Origin: a virus
Taxonomy: Duplodnaviria > Heunggongvirae > Uroviricota > Caudoviricetes
Direction: 5' to 3' (one strand)
Virus record (IMG/VR): IMGVR_UViG_2617270976_000018
DNA length: 12,354 bases
Of the stretch, positions 332-12,354 are shown one piece after another. A model generated the notes under the pieces. The model had not been told where the DNA came from, did no database searches, and saw only the letters and a list, made by a program, of their open reading frames with translations. Position 1 is the first letter of the stretch. Each line of letters starts with the position of its first letter. Both the position numbers and the translations under genes were made by a program.

Positions 332-430
332 GAGCGCTGAAACATGAAGCTGGACATCGATACGACCATCGGATGGGGTGATAAGACCCTTGCCGCTTTT
401 GCCGTCAAAGGTTTTGACAATTCCTGTCAT
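332..430 (-). pseudogene. cspF: Cold-shock protein CspF-like gene, 5' fragment only, truncated by the IS1 insertion
   Basis: Minus-strand translation from ATG at 430-428 gives [33 protein letters not shown], an N-terminal cold-shock domain of the CspF/CspH type, then runs into the IS1 inverted repeat. A possible TTG start lies at 442-440 (LSRKMTG). It is divergent from cspB, as in Qin. Confidence 0.7.
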
Positions 431-544
431 TTTACGGGACAAAAAAATTCCTTAATACTGATAACTTGGCGCACTATACACACGTTCCTGAAGAAAGCTA
501 TAGTTTTTTGATGGGGTTGAAGATGGCTGGATGTCTAAAATAAA

Positions 545-742
545 CATTGCTTCATATGTTCAACTATGCGTTAATGATTGCGTCGGTTTGAAGAACAGAC
601 GATATACGAAGTAGTTTACTAAAGCAGTTCTCATTTCAGGTGTTATTCACTTATTCCTTCTTTGAGTCTCTCCAATTAAGTACGAAGTCGTTTCTGTTAT
701 GCAAACCATTTATGCCGAAAGACTCAAGTTAAGGAATGTAGA
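545..742 (+). promoter_or_regulatory. cspB promoter and long cspA-type 5' leader (about 160 nt) with cold-box-like block
   Basis: The block GCGTTAATGATTGCGTCGGTTTGAAGAACAGAC (568-600) parallels the cspA -10/transcript-start region as I recall it (CTTAAT ... ACGGTTTGACGTACAGAC). A -35-like TTGCTT lies 17 bp upstream of GTTAAT (570-575). The upstream-box-like GCCGAAAGAC and SD AAGGA (731-735) sit 7 nt before the ATG. Confidence 0.5.
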
Positions 743-958
743 ATGTCAAATAAAATGACTGGTTTAGTAAAATGGTTTAACGCTGATAAAGGTTTCGGCT
801 TTATTTCTCCTGTTGATGGTAGTAAAGATGTGTTTGTGCATTTTTCTGCGATTCAGAATGATAATTATCGAACCTTATTTGAAGGTCAAAAGGTTACCTT
901 CTCTATAGAGAGTGGTGCTAAAGGTCCTGCAGCAGCAAATGTCATCATTACTGATTAA
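743..958 (+). CDS. cspB: Cold-shock protein CspB (CspA family, 71 aa)
   Basis: [74 protein letters not shown] carries the RNP1/RNP2 motifs of the cold-shock domain. Synteny next to divergent cspF and the lysis genes supports cspB rather than another paralog. Confidence 0.9.
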
Positions 959-1069
959 AATTCATCGCTCGTCTGTATACGATAACGAAGAAGGCTGATG
1001 CCTGAGTAGAGATACGGACAGAGTAGTGAATATTGGATCTCTTTAATAAAAAGTAAGGAGGTCCAATAC

Positions 1070-1105
1070 ATGAAACAATGGCTAGCATATTTGGCAAAAT
1101 ATTAA
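1070..1105 (+). CDS. Candidate 11-aa small ORF (MKQWLAYLAKY) behind a perfect Shine-Dalgarno; function unknown
   Basis: TAAGGAGGT at 1054-1062 is a full 9-nt match to the anti-SD complement, 7 nt before ATG 1070. There is no homology support and it is below the ORF-track size cutoff. Confidence 0.2.
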   Translation: MKQWLAYLAKY

Positions 1106-1239
1106 TCAGGAAAAGTATGCTAACCATTGTGGTGAAGTGCAGGTTTGCTGCATGAATAGTTTTACAGCAGAAGCTAACTGCTGGCATGGCAAAACAAAGT
1201 GCGTAAGTGGATGACTCCCACAAAAAGCACCACAATCTC

Positions 1240-1266
1240 AAACCCGCTCAGGCGGGTTTTTTATTA
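1240..1266. terminator. Intrinsic (Rho-independent) terminator, probably bidirectional
   Basis: AAACCCGC-TCAG-GCGGGTTT hairpin followed by TTTTATT on the plus strand. On the minus strand the same stem sits 56 nt downstream of the ynfU stop. Confidence 0.7.
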
Positions 1267-1321
1267 TCTGCTTTAAATATATTATTAAAATATAAAAAAT
1301 ACTTGTTACTAATAAAATCAA

Positions 1322-1492
1322 TCAGGCTACAGCTTTAAGATTTGTCTGGAATACTTTGTTGCAATGAGGGCAGATCAAAAGGGCACCTTTTTGTACTCTT
1401 GAAAAACTGTGTTCTGACTCTTGGGTGCAGTTTGGGCAGGAACATTTAACGAGATAATTACGGCGTGATTTTGAGTTTTTACGTTCTGACAT
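1322..1492 (-). CDS. ynfU: Small zinc-ribbon protein (CxxC...CxxC), YnfU-like, 56 aa
   Basis: Within the 73-aa track ORF, the internal Met gives MSERKNSKSRRNYLVKCSCPNCTQESEHSFSRVQKGALLICPHCNKVFQTNLKAVA with two CxxC pairs. AGGA lies 9 nt upstream of this ATG. The symbol is from memory of Qin small proteins. Confidence 0.6.
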   Translation of the reverse strand: MSERKNSKSRRNYLVKCSCPNCTQESEHSFSRVQKGALLICPHCNKVFQTNLKAVA

Positions 1493-1711
1493 AGGCTTTT
1501 CCTGTATAAATGGCCGTATACAGTACACTAAATATGAAAACATTTCTCGTATTATTATTTTATATATGACTTTCTTTCAAAATAATTACCCACATTTTTA
1601 ATGTGTATGTTTTTTTAGCGCCGTTGAGAACAACGTGTGCTGTCAAAACTACCCCGTAGACTCCGATCTTTTCAAACATATTGCACCATCCGTGTACATC
1701 GGGGTGAGGAT

Positions 1712-1927
1712 ATGAAATCAATGGATAAGTTAACAACAGGTGTTGCCTATGGCACATCGGCGGGTAATGCTGGTTTCTGGGCATTGCAGTTACTCGATAA
1801 AGTAACTCCGTCACAGTGGGCTGCAATCGGTGTGCTGGGTAGCCTGGTTTTTGGCCTGCTGACGTATCTGACAAATCTTTATTTCAAGATTAAAGAAGAC
1901 AGGCGTAAGGCTGCGAGAGGAGAGTAA
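1712..1927 (+). CDS. essQ: Class II holin, phage 21 S-type pinholin with dual-start motif (antiholin from Met1, holin from Met4)
   Basis: [71 protein letters not shown] (71 aa) closely resembles S21 as recalled. Two TM segments, the MKSM dual start and SD GGTGAGGA upstream are all present. The track ORF starts further 5' at 1637, probably too far. Confidence 0.85.
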
Positions 1928-1931
1928 TCCA

Positions 1932-2239
1932 ATGACTCAAGACTATGAACTGGTTGTGAAAGGAGTCCGTAATTTTGAGAATAAAGTTACGGTAACTGTA
2001 GCCTTACAGGACAAAGAACGCTTTGACGGTGAAATTTTTGACCTGGATGTCGCCATGGACCGTGTTGAAGGAGCTGCGCTGGAGTTTTATGAGGCAGCAG
2101 CCAGAAGGAGCGTCCGGCAAGTCTTCCTGGAAGTAGCAGAAAAATTGTCAGAAAAAGTTGAGTCTTATCTGCAGCATCAGTACTCCTTTAAGATTGAAAA
2201 TCCTGCCAATAAGCACGAGCGTCCTCATCATAAATATCT

Positions 2240-2243
<4 letters not shown>
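1932..2243 (+). CDS. ydfR: YdfR-family protein (DUF1327), unknown function, wedged between holin and endolysin
   Basis: 103-aa ORF with SD AGGAGAG upstream. Its stop overlaps the rrrQ start (ATGA at 2240-2243), indicating translational coupling inside the lysis operon. Confidence 0.8.
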
Positions 2244-3267
<1,024 letters not shown>

Positions 3268-3439
3268 GGTAATATTAAATCGGAACATTTACATCGCGGA
3301 ATGTAAAATTTAAATAAAAAGGACTCTTCCATGAGCCAAAATTCCTGAAATCTTAAGGGTAAGATAAAAGGTCTTAATCAGAATGACACGTTTTATTAAT
3401 AAATAAAGCTATTCTTTCATTGCTGTGTTTTTCTTTACA

Positions 3440-3629
3440 AAAGTAATCCTTGCTATGGGTGGTTAATCATGCGTTAATGGTGTTCTGGTTTGTTACAAAT
3501 TTATCTGAAGCAGTCATTGTTATAATTTTATTATTTGTACCTCTTGAGATTTCCTTGTTGGTTTTTCTCTCTGATATTTTTTTTCGGACCATTCTGCCCA
3601 AGGGCTAATTTCTTCAAAAGGTAATAATT
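3440..3629 (+). promoter_or_regulatory. cspI promoter and cspA-type 5' leader
   Basis: GCGTTAATGGTGTTCTGGTTTG (3471-3492) is paralogous to the cspB block at 568-590. An AT-rich UP-like region lies upstream, and the leader ends AAAGGTAATAATTATG. Confidence 0.45.
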
Positions 3630-3842
3630 ATGTCTAACAAAATGACTGGTTTAGTGAAATGGTTTAACCCTGAAAAAGGTTTTGGTTTCATCACGCCGAA
3701 AGATGGCAGCAAAGATGTGTTTGTCCATTTCTCAGCAATTCAGAGCAACGATTTCAAAACATTAACTGAGAATCAGGAAGTTGAATTTGGTATTGAGAAC
3801 GGACCTAAAGGTCCTGCCGCTGTTCATGTAGTGGCGCTTTGA
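3630..3842 (+). CDS. cspI: Cold-shock protein CspI (CspA family, 70 aa)
   Basis: [73 protein letters not shown]. It sits directly downstream of rzpQ, as in Qin. Confidence 0.9.
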
Positions 3843-3852
3843 GGTAGACAAT

Positions 3853-4041
3853 ATTACAAACCATATTCACTTTAGATGCCCGTGTTGTCATGGTTCCCAG
3901 TATAGAACATCATCTTTTGATGTTTCTGACATGAATCCTTTCGGGGCAAAATGTATCTTTTGTAAATCAATGATGATTACATTTGATAATATTTCACAAT
4001 ACTTAAATGCCAGCCGTCTGTCGTTGGATTTAAAAAAGTGA
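3853..4041 (+). CDS. Ogr/Delta-like four-cysteine zinc-ribbon ORF with no canonical start codon; possible AUU start, frameshift product or decayed gene
   Basis: Frame 1 is open from 3832 to the TGA at 4039-4041 and encodes ...HFRCPCCHGSQYRTSSFDVSDMNPFGAKCIFCKSMMITFDNISQYLNASRLSLDLKK. There is no ATG/GTG/TTG in frame. GAGGT (3841-3845) lies 7 nt before ATT 3853. An intrinsic terminator follows the stop. Confidence 0.3.
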   Translation: MTNHIHFRCPCCHGSQYRTSSFDVSDMNPFGAKCIFCKSMMITFDNISQYLNASRLSLDLKK

Positions 4042-4046
4042 AAATG

Positions 4047-4070
4047 AAGGCTCCTTCGGGAGCTTTTTTG
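4047..4070 (+). terminator. Intrinsic terminator
   Basis: AGGCTCC-TTCG-GGAGC hairpin followed by TTTTTT, 6 nt after the stop of the zinc-ribbon frame and about 205 nt after the cspI stop. Confidence 0.6.
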
Positions 4071-4188
4071 CTTGGTGTCTATTCGATGGATACTCACATA
4101 CTACGGTAACATCATGAAAAAAATCATAGTTTTTTTTAACTCTGAACCAGCAGTGGTAGTGCCAGCGATGACTGGAGTTAACACCATC

Positions 4189-4344
4189 ATGCGTGAATAT
4201 CCAAATGGCGAAAAAACACACCTTACTGTAATGGCCGCAGGGTTTCCATCTCTGACCGGAGATCATAAAGTCATTTATGTAGCCGCGGATCGACATGTTA
4301 CTTCAGAAGAAATTCTGGAAGCAGCAATAAGGCTCTTGAGTTGA
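4189..4344 (+). CDS. ynfN: Small hypothetical protein, YnfN-like (51 aa from ATG 4189; longer forms possible from ATG 4114 or TTG 4072)
   Basis: The open frame ends ...MREYPNGEKTHLTVMAAGFPSLTGDHKVIYVAADRHVTSEEILEAAIRLLS. The 51-aa length from ATG 4189 matches my recollection of YnfN length; I cannot recall its sequence. No strong SD precedes any candidate start. Confidence 0.45.
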   Translation: MREYPNGEKTHLTVMAAGFPSLTGDHKVIYVAADRHVTSEEILEAAIRLLS

Positions 4345-4515
4345 TTTGATGCTATTGCATTGATAATTCAGGAAAATTCTCTTTGTCTGTTTGTGTAAAA
4401 TTTAGACTATCGTATGTTGATTATTGCGATGTTTCATCTTATCTTTTACACGTTTGCACCATATAATCGACTTACTGTGTAACTGGAAAGTCATAACAGA
4501 CTAAAAGAGGAAATG

Positions 4516-4689
4516 ATGAATATTGAAAACTTAAAAACAAAAGCAGAAGCAGATATTTCTGAATATATAACAAAAAAAATTATTGAACTTAAGAAAAAGA
4601 CCGGGAAAGAAGTTACCAGTATTCAGTTTACCGCACGGGAAAAAATGACGGGTCTTGAAAGCTATGATGTCAAGATTAATTTAATCTGA
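4516..4689 (+). CDS. gnsB: GnsB-like small protein (Gns family; 57 aa)
   Basis: MNIENLKTKAEADISEYITKKIIELKKKTGKEVTSIQFTAREKMTGLESYDVKINLI, with SD AAAGAGGA at 4503-4510. An in-frame ATG immediately upstream at 4513 gives an MM start. Below the ORF-track size cutoff. Confidence 0.8.
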   Translation: MNIENLKTKAEADISEYITKKIIELKKKTGKEVTSIQFTAREKMTGLESYDVKINLI

Positions 4690-4715
4690 TGTATTCAATA
4701 ATAAAATTTATCCAT

Positions 4716-4742
4716 AAACCTCGTTTTTACGGGGTTTTGTTA
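4716..4742. terminator. Putative intrinsic terminator between convergent gnsB and ydfO
   Basis: AAACCUCG-UUUUUAC-GGGGUUU hairpin (one G-U pair) followed by a U-rich stretch. A second hairpin TCCGGC...GCCGGA lies at 4806-4834. Confidence 0.4.
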
Positions 4743-4840
4743 TATTTGAATGGTTCCGAATATCTAAATCACAATTGTTGATGGTTTTTATTAAACCAAT
4801 GCAGTCCGGCTCAGGAGTGAGAGAAGCCGGACGTTATGGT

Positions 4841-5251
4841 TTAGCGTGGTAAGATCTGTGTAGTTTTCTGGATGCTTTCAGTAAATAGTAATGAATTATC
4901 AAAGGTATAGTAATATCTTTTTTGTTCGTGGATATTTGTAACCCACCGAAAAACTCCTGCTTTAGCAAGGTTTCTTCTGTATTCCTGAAATGTGATCTCT
5001 CTGGATTTCAGCTTATTAGAGGTCGTTTCTATAAGATGCCTATCCTTTGAAAATTTGACAGACACAATGTTTTTTAGGCCCTTTAATAACACTGTATTAT
5101 CATTTTTTAATACAATATGAACATTCTCTGTGGCTAAATAGTAAATGTAATGTGAGACATTGTGACGTTTTAGCTCAGAATAAAACCATTGATAGTTTAA
5201 ATCGTTTCGAACTTTATCAAATATTTGTTTAAAAATGACTACCTGATCCAT
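4841..5251 (-). CDS. ydfO: YdfO-family protein (DUF1398), function unknown
   Basis: 136-aa ORF from the internal Met ([24 protein letters not shown]...). The track ORF extends 5 codons further 5'. It lies 57 bp downstream of ynfO on the same strand. Confidence 0.8.
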
Positions 5252-5308
5252 AGATAAACCTTCCATGTGATATGAGGGGGCGTAGTCTGCACGATTATCT
5301 AAATTGCT

Positions 5309-5542
5309 TCAATCTGGTCTGACCTGTTTTCTGAGCAATTCAGTAATGTCACTCTTTTCTTTGTTTGCTTCAGAAGAAACTCTTTTTTCTGAGCACAGTC
5401 TCCGGCGGCAGGCTTCAATGACCCAGGCTGAGAAATTCCCGGACCCTTTTTGCTCAAGAGCGATGTTAATTTGTTCAATCATTTGGTTAGGAAAGCGGAT
5501 GTTGCGGGTTGTTGTTCTGCGGGTTCTGTTCTTCGTTGACAT
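5309..5542 (-). CDS. ynfO: YnfO-family small protein with ribbon-helix-helix-like DNA-binding signature (77 aa)
   Basis: The segment RNIRFPNQMIEQINIALEQKGSGNFSAWVIEACRRRL fits a beta-strand/helix/helix RHH pattern of the Arc/MetJ/CopG type. It sits at the right-arm end of the phage genome, abutting cos. Confidence 0.75.
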   Translation of the reverse strand: MSTKNRTRRTTTRNIRFPNQMIEQINIALEQKGSGNFSAWVIEACRRRLCSEKRVSSEANKEKSDITELLRKQVRPD

Positions 5543-5566
5543 GAGGTTGCCCCGTATTCAGTGTCG

Positions 5567-5930
5567 CTGATTTGTATTGTCTGAAGTTGTTTTTACGTTA
5601 AGTTGATGCAGATCAATTAATACGATACCTGCGTCATAATTGATTATTTGACGTGGTTTGATGGCCTCCACGCACGTTGTGATATGTAGATGATAATCAT
5701 TATCACTTTACGGGTCCTTTCCGGTGATCCGACAGGTTACGGGGCGGCGACCTCGCGGGTTTTCGCTATTTATGAAAATTTTCCGGTTTAAGGCATTTCC
5801 GTTCTTCTTCGTCGTAACTTAATGTTTTTATTTAAAATACCCCCTGAAAAGAAAGGAAACGACAGGTGCTGAAAACGAGCTTTTGGGCCTCTGTCGTTTC
5901 CTTTCTCTGTTTTTGGCCGTGGAATGAACA
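5567..5930 (+). other. Lambda-type cohesive end site (cos): cosQ, cosN (12-nt cohesive end GGGCGGCGACCT at 5742-5753) and cosB with Nu1-binding R elements
   Basis: 5567-5741 matches the lambda right terminus as recalled (...GATAATCATTATCACTTTACGGGTCCTTTCCGGTGATCCGACAGGTTACG). It is followed directly by the lambda left terminus GGGCGGCGACCTCGCGGGTTTTCGCTATTTATGAAAATTTTCCGG. R-like elements lie at about 5783-5796, 5851-5865 and 5891-5906. Confidence 0.85.
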
Positions 5931-9046
<3,116 letters not shown>

Positions 9047-9143
9047 GGTAAAACATATAAATTCTATAATTAGATGTATCTTTCCATTTACGGCAAGGAA
9101 GGTGGCTTGGAAGACGTAAAGCATCTCACACCGAGATTATTTT

Positions 9144-9734
9144 TTATATGTCAGGTGTCTGAAGTTTTGCTTTGGCTCTTAAAATGGTTTGCCGCGAGGT
9201 TTTGAATTCCCGGGCAATGGCACTTATACTTACACCTGACTTAATTCGTTCGAATACCACCTGTTTCTGTTCTTCATTTAACACAGGTGGTCGACCAAAA
9301 CGTTTCCCTGCGCCCCGGGCTCTTACTATCCCGGAATGAGTGCGTTCAAGTAAAAGGTCTCGTTCAAATTCAGCGACTGCTGAAATTACTTGCATCATCA
9401 TTTTTCCTGTTGGACTGGTCAGGTCAATGCCCCCCAATGCTAAGCAATGCACTCTGATACCTGTTTCGGTCAGTTGTTCCACTGTTTTCCTGATATCCAT
9501 TGCATTACAACCAAGGCGATCCAGTTTTGTCACAATCAATTGATCACCACATTTCAGGCGAGCAAGCAACCGGTTAAAACCAGGACGCTCACTGGTTGCT
9601 GCTGAGCCGCTAATGTGTTCTTCGATTATTTGCTGAGGTTTGATTTTAAAACCTGCACTTTCGATTTCCCGGCGTTGATTTTCGGTGGTCTGATCCAGCG
9701 TTGATATCCGACAGTAAGCAAAAATTCGAGACAT
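9144..9734 (-). CDS. pinQ: Serine recombinase, Pin/Gin/Hin/Cin-family DNA invertase (196 aa)
   Basis: [29 protein letters not shown]... has the resolvase/invertase N-terminal catalytic domain with the active-site Ser in the RIST motif, and a C-terminal HTH ([20 protein letters not shown]). Confidence 0.9.
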
Positions 9735-10050
9735 AGTGAGACTCTATACGAAATTGGTGTTCATATCATAATGCATCTCAGAAAATAATTTTGATTATTT
9801 TTGTGCATATTTGTATGTACACGTTCGAAAATAAACGAATGCGTATGCAACCCCGTAATTTTGGTGAGACCCAAAATCGATTTTGTGAAAAATGGCTTTA
9901 ACTCGGTTTGTTTTTCGAGTTCCGGGCGGACTCAAGGAAGAAGAATAGTGTTGCGTGTTATTTTAACCAGATTTCAAGTTGTTTGGTCGTGGAAAAGTGG
10001 AGCAAAATGTTGTTAAAGTGGAAAAATGATAAAAAAGTAAGTTTATTATA

Positions 10051-10284
10051 TTACATTTTACCATTTAAATTTTGGTTGTCTTTAAGAACTGATATCGCTG
10101 TTTGTAATAATTCTTTGTTATCCAGCCATGATTTTTTCTTTATGTTTCCTTCAATGTAATCAAGCAATGTTCTGGTATTGATAGGTCTTCCCTGTTTTGC
10201 TACTTCCACTACAGCATCCCCTAGGATAATTCTTACTTCAGGAAGCTGCGCAGGGAACCACTTTAGGGTGTCTTTTGATTTCAT
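10051..10284 (-). CDS. ydfK: YdfK/YnaE-family small protein (77 aa), prophage moron reported as cold-shock induced
   Basis: MKSKDTLKWFPAQLPEVRIILGDAVVEVAKQGRPINTRTLLDYIEGNIKKKSWLDNKELLQTAISVLKDNQNLNGKM, with SD AAGGAA 7 nt upstream. The track ORF extends 11 codons further 5' to 10317. Confidence 0.8.
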   Translation of the reverse strand: MKSKDTLKWFPAQLPEVRIILGDAVVEVAKQGRPINTRTLLDYIEGNIKKKSWLDNKELLQTAISVLKDNQNLNGKM

Positions 10285-11070
10285 GAAGATATTCCTTAAA
10301 ATATTATTGATTTTCATTGCGATATTGTATGTCTGATTCAGGATATGTTGACTTATACATCGGTTTTGTCTGGGTTATTGGATATGCCAATCCCTAATTT
10401 TATTAGGGCATGACTAAAAATGCTGAATATGATAAGGAGAGATGTGATTATCAGTATGCTGTTCATATAGCCTCGAATTAGTAATGTGTTATATATGATA
10501 TAGTTGACAATTTTTATCTTGGGTGTTCTTAAAGTTCGTAGATAAACATTGTCGTTTCAGGTATACAGGAATGCTAACAGGTGGCAGCAAAAATCAGGCG
10601 GTTTATGGCGCAAGCTGAAGCGGCAACTGCAAACTATCTTATGCAGAGACTCTACACGGATTGGGTTTAAAAGTATACATAGATAACAGTTTTTATCTGA
10701 AAAATAAAAATATCAAGGTGATATAGCCTATATGCCTTTGATGCGGAGGAATGAATGTGATGGGAGTGATGTATCTGAATAGTTGAAAAACCGCAGACAC
10801 GCCTTATGCAAGAACGTGCTGCGGTTGGCTGGTAAATTTTTCGATAGTGTGAGTATTGAATGATTTCCAGCCGTTCTTGATTTTACGCATAAATCCATGA
10901 AAAAACTACTTATCTGTTGGGGAGTTTTTTTTGGGGCATATATGGGACATAAATAGGCCCCAGATAGACACTGAGATCGAACTTAGGATGCTTTTTAAAA
11001 AATGCAACTATCTGAAAAAACCTAGAAAACGCCAAGGAAACCACAGGATGGGAAAAAACACCTGTGAATT

Positions 11071-12354
11071 ATGGATTTCCAGTTATATTCGCTCGGCGCA
11101 GCGTTAGTGTTTCATGAAATATTTTTTCCTGAATCATCAACGGCAATGGCGTTAATTCTGGCAATGGGAACCTACGGTGCAGGTTATGTGGCGCGTATTG
11201 TCGGAGCATTTATTTTCGGCAAAATGGGCGACAGAATAGGGCGTAAAAAAGTGCTCTTTATTACCATCACCATGATGGGGATCTGTACCACCTTAATTGG
11301 TGTGTTACCGACCTATGCACAGATTGGTGTTTTTGCACCCATCTTGCTGGTGACGTTGCGTATTATTCAGGGGTTGGGTGCAGGTGCGGAAATTTCCGGT
11401 GCCGGTACGATGCTGGCGGAATATGCGCCAAAAGGTAAGCGCGGAATTATCTCCTCATTTGTGGCTATGGGAACTAACTGCGGAACCTTGAGCGCAACGG
11501 CAATCTGGGCCTTTATGTTCTTCATTCTCAGTAAAGAGGAACTGCTGGCGTGGGGATGGCGTATACCGTTCCTGGCGAGCGTTGTCGTGATGGTCTTTGC
11601 TATCTGGTTGCGTATGAATCTGAAAGAAAGCCCGGTCTTTGAGAAGGTTAACGACAGTAACCAACCGACAGCAAAACCTGCACCTGCTGGTAGCATGTTC
11701 CAGAGCAAATCCTTCTGGCTGGCAACAGGGCTGCGTTTTGGTCAGGCGGGTAACTCCGGGTTAATTCAGACTTTCCTTGCAGGCTATTTAGTGCAGACGT
11801 TATTGTTTAACAAAGCAATTCCAACAGATGCATTGATGATCAGTTCGATTCTCGGCTTTATGACCATTCCGTTCCTTGGTTGGTTATCCGATAAAATTGG
11901 TCGCCGGATCCCGTATATTATTATGAATACCTCCGCGATTGTGCTGGCATGGCCAATGCTTTCTATCATTGTAGATAAAAGCTATGCCCCGAGCACCATT
12001 ATGGTTGCACTGATTGTGATTCATAACTGTGCGGTGCTGGGATTATTTGCTCTGGAAAACATTACCATGGCAGAAATGTTCGGCTGTAAAAACCGCTTTA
12101 CCCGGATGGCTATTTCTAAAGAAATTGGTGGTCTTATCGCTTCCGGTTTTGGTCCTATCCTGGCGGGTATTTTCTGCACCATGACGGAATCCTGGTATCC
12201 GATCGCCATTATGATCATGGCATATTCAGTGATTGGTTTAATCTCTGCGCTGAAAATACCAGAGGTGAAAGACCGTGATTTAAGTGCGCTGGAAGACGCT
12301 GCGGAAGATCAACCGCGTGTTGTAAGAGCTGCGCAACCTTCCAGAAGTCTGTAA
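11071..12354 (+). CDS. ydfJ: MFS transporter (metabolite:H+ symporter / ProP-like family) YdfJ, N-terminally truncated at the prophage junction; probable pseudogene
   Basis: The 427-aa ORF starts at MDFQLYSLGAALVFHEIFFP, which corresponds to the conserved E-W-(F/Y)-D-F...FFP motif that normally lies about 25-35 residues inside MHS transporters. The frame is closed by TGA at 11065-11067. The window ends at its stop codon. Confidence 0.85.
   Translation: MDFQLYSLGAALVFHEIFFPESSTAMALILAMGTYGAGYVARIVGAFIFGKMGDRIGRKKVLFITITMMGICTTLIGVLPTYAQIGVFAPILLVTLRIIQGLGAGAEISGAGTMLAEYAPKGKRGIISSFVAMGTNCGTLSATAIWAFMFFILSKEELLAWGWRIPFLASVVVMVFAIWLRMNLKESPVFEKVNDSNQPTAKPAPAGSMFQSKSFWLATGLRFGQAGNSGLIQTFLAGYLVQTLLFNKAIPTDALMISSILGFMTIPFLGWLSDKIGRRIPYIIMNTSAIVLAWPMLSIIVDKSYAPSTIMVALIVIHNCAVLGLFALENITMAEMFGCKNRFTRMAISKEIGGLIASGFGPILAGIFCTMTESWYPIAIMIMAYSVIGLISALKIPEVKDRDLSALEDAAEDQPRVVRAAQPSRSL

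Follow-up and report, generated by a model that had tools for sequence, protein, structure and literature searches.

The 316-nt spacer between ydfK and the small serine recombinase gene pinQ in a Qin-type prophage of Escherichia coli appears to be a join of two modules rather than a dedicated cluster of protein-binding sites. Its pinQ-proximal part (9735–9846) is very probably a decayed version of the res-type control sequences that precede the genes of close PinQ relatives, and the rest (approximately 9847–10050) appears to be junction DNA. A sequence-only reading had singled out two palindromes in this spacer as possible regulator or nucleoid-protein sites controlling pinQ, or as the ydfK terminator. 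For these palindromes the result is mostly negative and matters only for work on this locus.

The stretch analyzed, hereafter the window, is 12,354 nt long and corresponds to one end of a Qin-type prophage of E. coli, running as the reverse complement of MG1655. Positions 332–6439 and 8885–12354 are 99.6–99.95% identical to MG1655, and positions 1–331 and 6440–8884 differ from it. PinQ carries the Resolvase and HTH_7 domains (Pfam PF00239 and PF02796). Since pinQ and ydfK are both encoded on the minus strand at the coordinates in Table 1, the spacer lies downstream of ydfK and upstream of pinQ. This geometry, with a minus-strand pinQ start at 9734 and the ydfK 3′ end beyond it, had already been read correctly, as the open reading frame list and RefSeq both show, and so had the AT-richness of the spacer (approximately 34% G+C, range 29–36%). 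RefSeq annotates no feature within it. The same ydfK–spacer–pin arrangement occurs in approximately 2800 of 5426 complete E. coli genomes, in the Rac prophage (as ynaE–pinR), and in live lambdoid phages, among them mEp460, Tritos, Kati, Turner, and 2H10, where it lies downstream of stf–tfa.

Table 1. Genes, candidate control elements, and palindromes of the ydfK–pinQ locus, in window coordinates
Feature	Position	Strand	Description
pinQ CDS	9144..9734	-	196 aa small serine recombinase; ORF list, RefSeq annotation on identical DNA
Putative relic res site III	9746..9766	-	IIIb TTTCGTAT (9753->9746); IIIa ATATGAAC (9766->9759)
Candidate promoter P2	9765..9794	-	-35 TCAAAA (9794->9789), 18-nt spacer, -10 TATGAT (9770->9765)
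Putative relic res site II	9777..9806	-	II-L GCACAAAA (9806->9799); II-R TTTCTGAG (9784->9777)
Palindrome a (new here)	9782-9801		AAAATAAT-N4-ATTATTTT
Candidate promoter P1	9794..9821	-	TGTACA-16-AATAAT, 9/12, promoter scan
Putative relic res site I	9823..9846	-	I-R TTTCGAAC (9830->9823), 8-nt spacer, I-L ATACGCAT (9846->9839)
Predicted two-hairpin RNA domain d + b	9852..9927	-	closed by CCCG (9926-9923)/CGGG (9855-9852)
Palindrome b (flagged)	9858..9877	.	ATTTTGG-N6-CCAAAAT, 7-nt arms
Palindrome c (new here)	9872..9885	.	perfect 14-mer CAAAATCGATTTTG, overlaps b
Palindrome d (flagged)	9900..9921	.	AACTCG-N10-CGAGTT
Rut-like tract	9976..10053	-	C-rich, G-poor, C=19, G=2; candidate Rho loading site
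ydfK CDS	10051..10284	-	77 aa cold shock protein YdfK
ydfJ	11071-12354	+	

The relatives of PinQ provide the key to the spacer. On plasmid pOkiPb01701_1, a PinQ homologue with 84% amino-acid identity is transcribed divergently from a Tn3-family transposase gene 160 nt away. This recombinase–transposase pair recurs in 458 plasmid records, in several lineages that are 77–80% identical, and its hosts include Escherichia, Klebsiella, Enterobacter, Salmonella, Citrobacter, Vibrio, and Providencia. The Klebsiella recombinase, for instance, is 79% identical to PinQ and its neighbor matches DDE_Tnp_Tn3 at 500 bits. PinQ itself reaches 105 bits against Gin and 82 bits against the gamma-delta/Tn3 resolvase, and its published identity to PinE is 38% (PMC12529663). 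The premise that PinQ belongs to the Din family thus looks weak.

Comparison of seven diverged spacers upstream of such relatives (three from plasmids, and one each from Photorhabdus, Shewanella, Erwinia, and Mycoavidus) shows that all seven contain six GTMCGAAA half-sites, each at a constant distance from the ATG. The distal site I is an inverted pair (I-L at -114, plus sense; I-R at -98, minus sense) with an 8-bp spacer (8+8+8 bp); site II (II-L at -74, plus; II-R at -52, minus) has a 14-bp spacer (8+14+8 bp); and site III comprises two same-sense copies (IIIa at -34 and IIIb at -21, both minus). A TATAAT or TATGAT -10 element abuts IIIa. This arrangement appears to be a res-type layout. Exchange at site I, considered for two plasmid loci (H103 and H105), was rejected: both simply retain the whole res without the transposase.

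The window carries a recognizable, decayed counterpart of this region in register with the relatives (Table 1). A half-site weight matrix built from 42 half-sites of the relatives gives IIIb 11.8 bits, I-R 5.2 bits, and I-L 4.6 bits, and leaves site II below threshold. IIIb is the sole well-kept half-site, its 12-mer (9744–9755) being the second-best score in the whole window, and, apart from IIIb, only I-R has the TTTCG core. Both half-sites of site II have lost their CG core. The decay has proceeded unevenly: where the Qin/Rac type and the type represented by phage 2H10 differ at half-sites, the 2H10 type has the consensus base at six of eight positions, so the Qin type is the more decayed. 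In the 2H10 lineage I-L is still recognizable as ATCCGAAT, and on this account the idea of a hybrid site, with homology broken exactly at the center of site I, was dropped. Binding of PinQ may be gone altogether, because the CG cores of site II are lost and the left half of site I is poor. No half-site above 4 bits is found at 9853–10050. A tblastn search of the window with TnpA returned no transposase remnant, the best match having E=2.6.

Homology limits bracket the remaining DNA on both sides. Matches to Photorhabdus and Shewanella cover 9743–9814, and those to E. coli plasmids end at 9814. Identity to the relatives is 70–87% at 9735–9794, approximately 55% at 9795–9840, and at a background level of 30–40% at 9841–9860, such that homology stops at 9846, the outer end of relic site I, and only 9735–9846 of the spacer is kept in distant relatives. 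On the other side, the similarity of the ydfK homologue in Salmonella phage 118970_sal3, which is 83% identical, ends at the stop codon. DNA similar to 9838–10050 is found at this locus only. Therefore, the flagged motifs lie in junction DNA that is private to the E. coli lambdoid ydfK–pin module.

Among known systems, the res sites of Tn3 and gamma-delta offer the closest parallel. As in those elements, the putative site immediately precedes the gene of a small serine recombinase, and in the PinQ relatives it contains three subsites, each with a different half-site spacing; the gene-side subsite overlaps the -10 element and the start region, and beyond the distal subsite lies a divergent Tn3-family transposase gene. 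In Tn3, promoters lie inside res and are autoregulated by resolvase binding (PMC7157771). The differences are that the half-site of the PinQ relatives is GTMCGAAA instead of the Tn3 motif, that their site III consists of same-sense copies instead of an inverted pair, and that the window has no transposase and mostly degenerate half-sites. A direct-repeat subsite also forms the accessory site II of Sin resH, which resembles site III of the PinQ relatives in its same-sense half-sites. However, Sin belongs to another recombinase clade, and no architectural-protein site was identified here. The likeness to Din-type systems consists of a neighboring gene named pin and the reported inversion of the e14 P segment by PinQ in trans (PMC12529663). 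In contrast to those systems, no 12+2+12 AAACC-NN-GGTTT site exists in the spacer or within 5 kb, and site I of the relatives has AAACC and GGTTT 4 bp apart, not 2.

Two candidate promoters for pinQ fall within the putative relic (Table 1). P2 scores 8/12, and its -10 element is conserved, as TATAAT or TATGAT, in every relative. The hexamers of P1, which are not conserved in the relatives, appear to have arisen from the decay of site II. In genomic SELEX, the ydfK–pinQ and ynaE–pinR spacers each have a peak for the RNA polymerase sigma-70 holoenzyme, and the ydfK–pinQ spacer also has an H-NS mark (PMC3946193). The spacer thus combines the two features by which a sigma-70 promoter was judged, namely, hexamers spaced 16–18 nt apart and an in vitro polymerase peak. 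The promoter predicted for pinQ and pinR in the same study (Shimada 2014) has the hexamers of P1 (PMC3946193); these published hexamers are a sequence pick within a low-resolution SELEX peak. A separate pinQ promoter is consistent with single-cell data, in which the rare cell clusters marked by pinQ differ from those marked by ydfK. Regarding expression, pinQ/pinR mRNA rises 14-fold upon T2 infection, and a published study describes PinQ as a recombinase-activated defense against phage that inverts DNA located in another prophage (PMC12529663).

At the other end of the spacer, the 78 nt directly after the ydfK stop codon (9976–10053) constitute the most C/G-skewed segment of that length in the 12.3 kb, on either strand, with a C/G ratio of up to 5.7–6.7 that is unique in the window. 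The tract is unpaired in the centroid fold, and it has what was sought in a rut site, that is, approximately 70–80 nt of C-rich, G-poor, poorly structured RNA past a stop codon. Within it, a 53-nt block (9976–10028) lacks differences between the two lineages; as a signal of constraint the block was set aside, being by estimate not significant given the number of gaps. An intrinsic terminator is absent: a search of 9600–10600 returned zero terminator-like sites on either strand, which gives no support to the palindromes as an intrinsic terminator of ydfK. Stems b and d have two and three G–C pairs, respectively, and on the sense strand they are followed by UACGGGG (b) and AAAGCC (d), with a U-run after neither.

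A rut-like tract combined with the lack of an intrinsic terminator is the signature expected for a Rho loading site, and 9976–10053 looks like one, judged solely by its C/G skew. Tiling-array data show one differentially expressed transcript that spans ydfK and pinQ, which fits leaky termination of ydfK. In these respects the locus resembles the Rho-dependent terminators of horizontally acquired genes, in which a C-rich tract follows the stop codon, an intrinsic terminator is lacking, and read-through into the next gene is detected; here, the action of Rho is predicted from composition. Our literature searches found nothing that links ydfK, ynaE, or pinR with Rho or bicyclomycin, and nothing at nucleotide resolution on start sites, 3′ ends, Rho, or H-NS in the spacer. 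One Term-seq supplement has no entry for the four genes of the ydfK–pinQ and ynaE–pinR loci, possibly because the Rac and Qin copies are approximately 99.7% identical and short reads may not map uniquely.

The model that we tentatively prefer, with a confidence that stops a little short of even, joins these two ends: a Rho-type termination of ydfK that leaks, and a weak pinQ promoter that lies within a decayed res and is covered by H-NS. pinQ would be transcribed from a weak sigma-70 promoter in the res relic, P2 and/or the lineage-specific P1, with H-NS covering the AT-rich spacer DNA. Any residual binding of PinQ at site III or I-R would repress the gene, as resolvase does at the res of Tn3. 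We consider this part of the model, a weak promoter in the relic with possible repression by PinQ, to be evenly poised between right and wrong. Transcripts of ydfK, lacking an intrinsic terminator, would enter 9976–10053 and load Rho there, with termination in the next 100–150 nt, and those that escape would give the ydfK–pinQ co-transcript. Rho-type termination of ydfK is the more tentative of the two parts, plausible but leaning toward doubt. The flagged palindromes would then be the first modest hairpins past the rut-like tract and, at most, RNA pause or 3′-end-protecting structures.

The palindrome cluster is itself real and mildly unusual. Both flagged palindromes exist, displaced from where they had been placed: TTTTGG-TGAGAC-CCAAAA lies at 9859–9876 and not at approximately 9865–9882, and AACTCG-N10-CGAGTT lies at 9900–9921 and not at approximately 9912–9933, that is, 6 and 12 nt further left. 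Two palindromes of the spacer, a and c, had gone unlisted; a is the inner part of relic site II. Against 2000 dinucleotide shuffles, the spacer has eight perfect 6-nt inverted repeats with an inner spacer of up to 12 nt (mean 2.0 in shuffles; P=0.018, uncorrected) and four perfect 7-nt repeats (0.5 in shuffles; P=0.02, uncorrected). The excess is modest, because the eight counts represent four distinct elements, with overlapping registers counted.

How the palindromes vary is informative about what they might do. From 110 loci, 34 distinct spacer alignments were obtained, and these fall into two lineages, the Qin/Rac type and the phage 2H10 type, with approximately 30 differences between them. 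Relative to phage 2H10, the window differs at 3 of 591 nt in pinQ (0.5%) and approximately 5 of 234 nt in ydfK, and in the spacer at approximately 30 positions (approximately 10%) plus a 63-nt insertion. The approximately 10% divergence of the spacer, set against 0.5% in pinQ, argues for little constraint anywhere in it. Stem b has undergone four independent events (9858 T>G, 9859 A>G, an insertion at 9863, and 9872 G>A/T), which amount to four polymorphic events in 14 arm positions, or approximately three times the spacer-wide average of approximately 0.1 per nt. In palindrome d, the two lineages share the same right arm and loop, and the left arm is AGTTCG in most 2H10-type sequences, which loses the DNA symmetry and pairs by G–U only on the sense strand; in two alignments (L074 and L075) it is ATTTCG, with one broken pair. 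As sense-strand RNA, b is predicted to form an 8-bp hairpin (-7.9 kcal/mol) and d a 6-bp hairpin with a 10-nt loop (-6.6 kcal/mol). Together with a closing helix they make up a predicted domain of -17.7 kcal/mol (z = -2.26) that is better than 97% of shuffles. Covariation does not corroborate this fold: across 17 distinct variants of d, b, and the closing helix, there are zero double-sided changes, the same as in shuffles.

Given these patterns, the strongest competitor to the preferred model is that the palindromes have no function at all and arose as inverted repeats by chance, in AT-rich junction DNA of low complexity that drifts freely under H-NS. This is a serious prospect, even if we judge it somewhat improbable. 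It accords with the lack of covariation, with the hyper-polymorphic arms of b and the three alleles at 9872, with a spacer that has diverged by approximately 10% between lineages whose flanking genes remain 98–99.5% identical, and with the small number of elements, only four, behind P~0.02. It accords as well with the absence of any consensus match and of any Rfam family in the spacer at gathering or E-value thresholds, save a chance snoRNA match (E=4.3). It accords, too, with two alignments (L024 and L025) that break b, c, and d together, although their decay says little, because both flank damaged pin genes. Drift alone is harder to reconcile with a repeat count above 98% of shuffles, with a d + b fold of the rank given above, and with the parts that have stayed identical in both lineages, namely, the right arm and loop of d and the 12-nt core of c (AAAATCGATTTT).

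Another explanation is that b and c, with three ATTTTG/CAAAAT units in alternating orientation (-> <- ->), and perhaps d serve as an operator for a dimeric regulator of pinQ, phage- or host-encoded, which would explain the 14-fold rise of pinQ/pinR mRNA on T2 infection. Palindrome c is a perfect 14-bp palindrome with what reads as an H-NS-type TCGAT core inside it, and in most 2H10-type sequences its outer pair changes from C..G to A..T; in those sequences b keeps 6-nt arms, with the inner spacer shortened from 6 to 5. However, the outer pair is compensated inconsistently, being A..G in L060, L074, and L075 and A..A in the L069 group, and the apparent compensation was rejected as evidence because 9872 is T, A, or G within one lineage. 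The arms of d are asymmetric in the 2H10 lineage, the distance from the sites to the downstream -10 elements of P1 and P2 is approximately 65–130 nt, and no regulator gene is linked to the module. Nor do consensus sites for nucleoid proteins support an operator. The proposed Fis/IHF-type sites at the palindromes found no backing, in that no consensus match overlaps 9858–9921, which is a weak test; likewise, the counts of the IHF (WATCARNNNNTTR) and Fis (GNTYAWWWWWTRANC) consensus across the window are not above chance, again a weak test. The nearest matches are IHF-like at 10003–10015 and Fis-like at 9759–9773 and 10041–10055. An operator at b and c is, in our assessment, improbable.

It is scarcely credible that the palindromes are PinQ recombination sites, be they crossover sites, accessory sites, or a Fis-dependent enhancer of Din-type inversion, even though they adjoin a serine recombinase gene and GTCTCACCAAAAT reads as loosely like the outer part of Din half-sites, since the spacer lacks the relatives' half-sites beyond the relic, AAACC-NN-GGTTT is absent together with any inverted partner within 5 kb, and a published BLAST survey limits inversions to e14, on which PinQ acts in trans (PMC12529663). 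The mismatch to AAACC-NN-GGTTT had been noted correctly: none occurs with two or fewer mismatches in 9735–10050, and the seven matches in the whole window, against 7.8 expected, are at chance level. An inverted partner was sought at 5500–10400 for every spacer motif and found for none, and a Din crossover site of the gix/hix/cix/pix kind is accordingly rejected by both the pattern scan and the partner search. Two other candidates were also discarded. Small open reading frames in the spacer do not keep their frames between lineages, show approximately 10 amino-acid changes per 14 nt differences, and are broken in L025; and the published Fur cluster lies at the ydfK start, outside the spacer.

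The preferred model of leaky ydfK termination and a weak promoter within the relic leaves the hairpins little to do. An RNA pause or 3′-end role is the only one compatible with the conservation of d by G–U pairing on the sense strand alone, and that the flagged hairpins have any role is, overall, unlikely. The general expectation of regulation in this region fared better for the spacer than for its palindromes. The spacer appears to hold control signals of pinQ and binds a nucleoid protein in genomic SELEX; for control of pinQ by the palindromes, the null covariation result and the polymorphic arms of b are unfavorable, and the conserved promoter-proximal elements lie instead at 9735–9846.

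A broader reading, which we regard as a rather long shot, is that the pinQ/pinR cassette, in the Qin and Rac prophages as in live lambdoid phages, is a domesticated Tn3-family resolvase module, consisting of a recombinase and its own res. On this reading, the res of the phage lineage has decayed, further in the Qin than in the 2H10 type, and the catalytic arginine equivalent to R71 of gamma-delta has become a cysteine. If the cassette is such a module, PinQ that still binds site III and I-R would repress its own promoter, the 14-fold rise on T2 infection would reflect derepression and/or lost Rho termination of ydfK read-through, and the flagged hairpins would be a conditional pause or attenuator between ydfK and pinQ.

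The relic of res and the descent of PinQ from resolvases, neither of which was described in the literature returned by the searches run, constitute a modest new observation and nothing categorically new. Three practical leads follow. PinQ appears much nearer to the resolvases of transposons than it is to Gin, Hin, or PinE. For work on the pinQ promoter, the relevant DNA would be the probable decayed res-type operator/promoter at 9735–9846, not the flagged palindromes, and read-through from ydfK over the rut-like tract may provide a second route to pinQ expression.

PinQ carries a cysteine at residue 76, within the motif LDRLGC, and the live phage 2H10 (L003) encodes a PinQ with the same cysteine. 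The equivalent position is occupied by arginine (LDRLGR) in Gin, in the gamma-delta/Tn3 resolvases, and in all five Tn3-linked relatives, that is, PinQ-like recombinases beside Tn3-family transposases. In the alignment, PinQ residue 76 corresponds to R71 of gamma-delta resolvase, a catalytic residue. The substitution is noteworthy because PinQ has been reported to be active as an invertase (PMC12529663).

The top match across the whole window to the half-site of res, the recombination and operator site of Tn3-type transposons, is CTGACCGAAACA, located within the pinQ coding sequence; it could reflect chance, coding constraint, or an internal site. Among the relatives, the Erwinia oleae locus (L018) presents IIIb-type half-sites at 1878-1888 and 2045-2055 that flank site I in mirror symmetry, which suggests that the res arm has undergone a larger inverted duplication there. 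Separately, the IncF plasmids pSA186_2 and p16_1068_1 (L117 and L118) retain a PinQ-like recombinase together with a complete res-type spacer (~116-124 nt), with other DNA, adjoining an iron-uptake cluster, in the transposase's place. The recombinase and spacer of these plasmids may constitute a multimer-resolution cassette.

Between the window and 2H10, across 9735-10700, both coding sequences are 98-99.5% identical, whereas identity drops to ~90% in the two noncoding segments, the ydfK leader and the ydfK-pinQ spacer, and 2H10 bears a 63-nt insertion directly 3′ of the ydfK stop. The contrast in identity reflects either a recombination mosaic or far faster drift of noncoding DNA. In some genomes the spacer harbors IS1 (L111, NZ_CP024232.1; H1, NZ_CP101233.1); in the former, homology ends at window position ~9899, adjoining palindrome d (AACTCG-N10-CGAGTT, 9900-9921), and pin is absent.

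Of the RNA family matches in the window (see table), IS009 falls in a tail-fibre-assembly gene remnant directly 3′ of pinQ. The ydfK leader, an Hfq-bound candidate thermosensor according to PMC4152368, returned zero Rfam matches.

Features of the window and their coordinates
Feature	Position	Strand	Details
Rfam IS009 (RF02111)	8798-9012	+	128 bits; gathering score 117
cspA-thermoregulator family	582-974	+	spans cspB (ORF 743-958) 5′ UTR and start
cspA-thermoregulator family	3484-3869	+	spans cspI (ORF 3630-3842) 5′ UTR and start
PinQ Cys76 codon	9507-9509	-	
res half-site match	9462-9473	-	13.7 bits
pinQ codon 3	9726-9728	-	CGA (Arg)
Departures from MG1655 Qin	1-331; 6440-8884		
Side-tail-fibre ORF	6460-8700		746 aa

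The window departs from MG1655 Qin in two stretches, the second of which contains a side-tail-fibre ORF whose K-12 counterpart is the shorter stfQ/tfaQ. At codon 3 of pinQ, the window agrees with pinR, the paralogue in Rac, while MG1655 Qin has CAA (Gln). The mutations given elsewhere as "R3Q (PinR)" and "Q3R (PinQ)" (PMC11297538) coincide with this difference between the paralogues, and could stem from cross-mapping or gene conversion. Codon 3 thus exemplifies how the pinQ and pinR copies can be confused by short reads.
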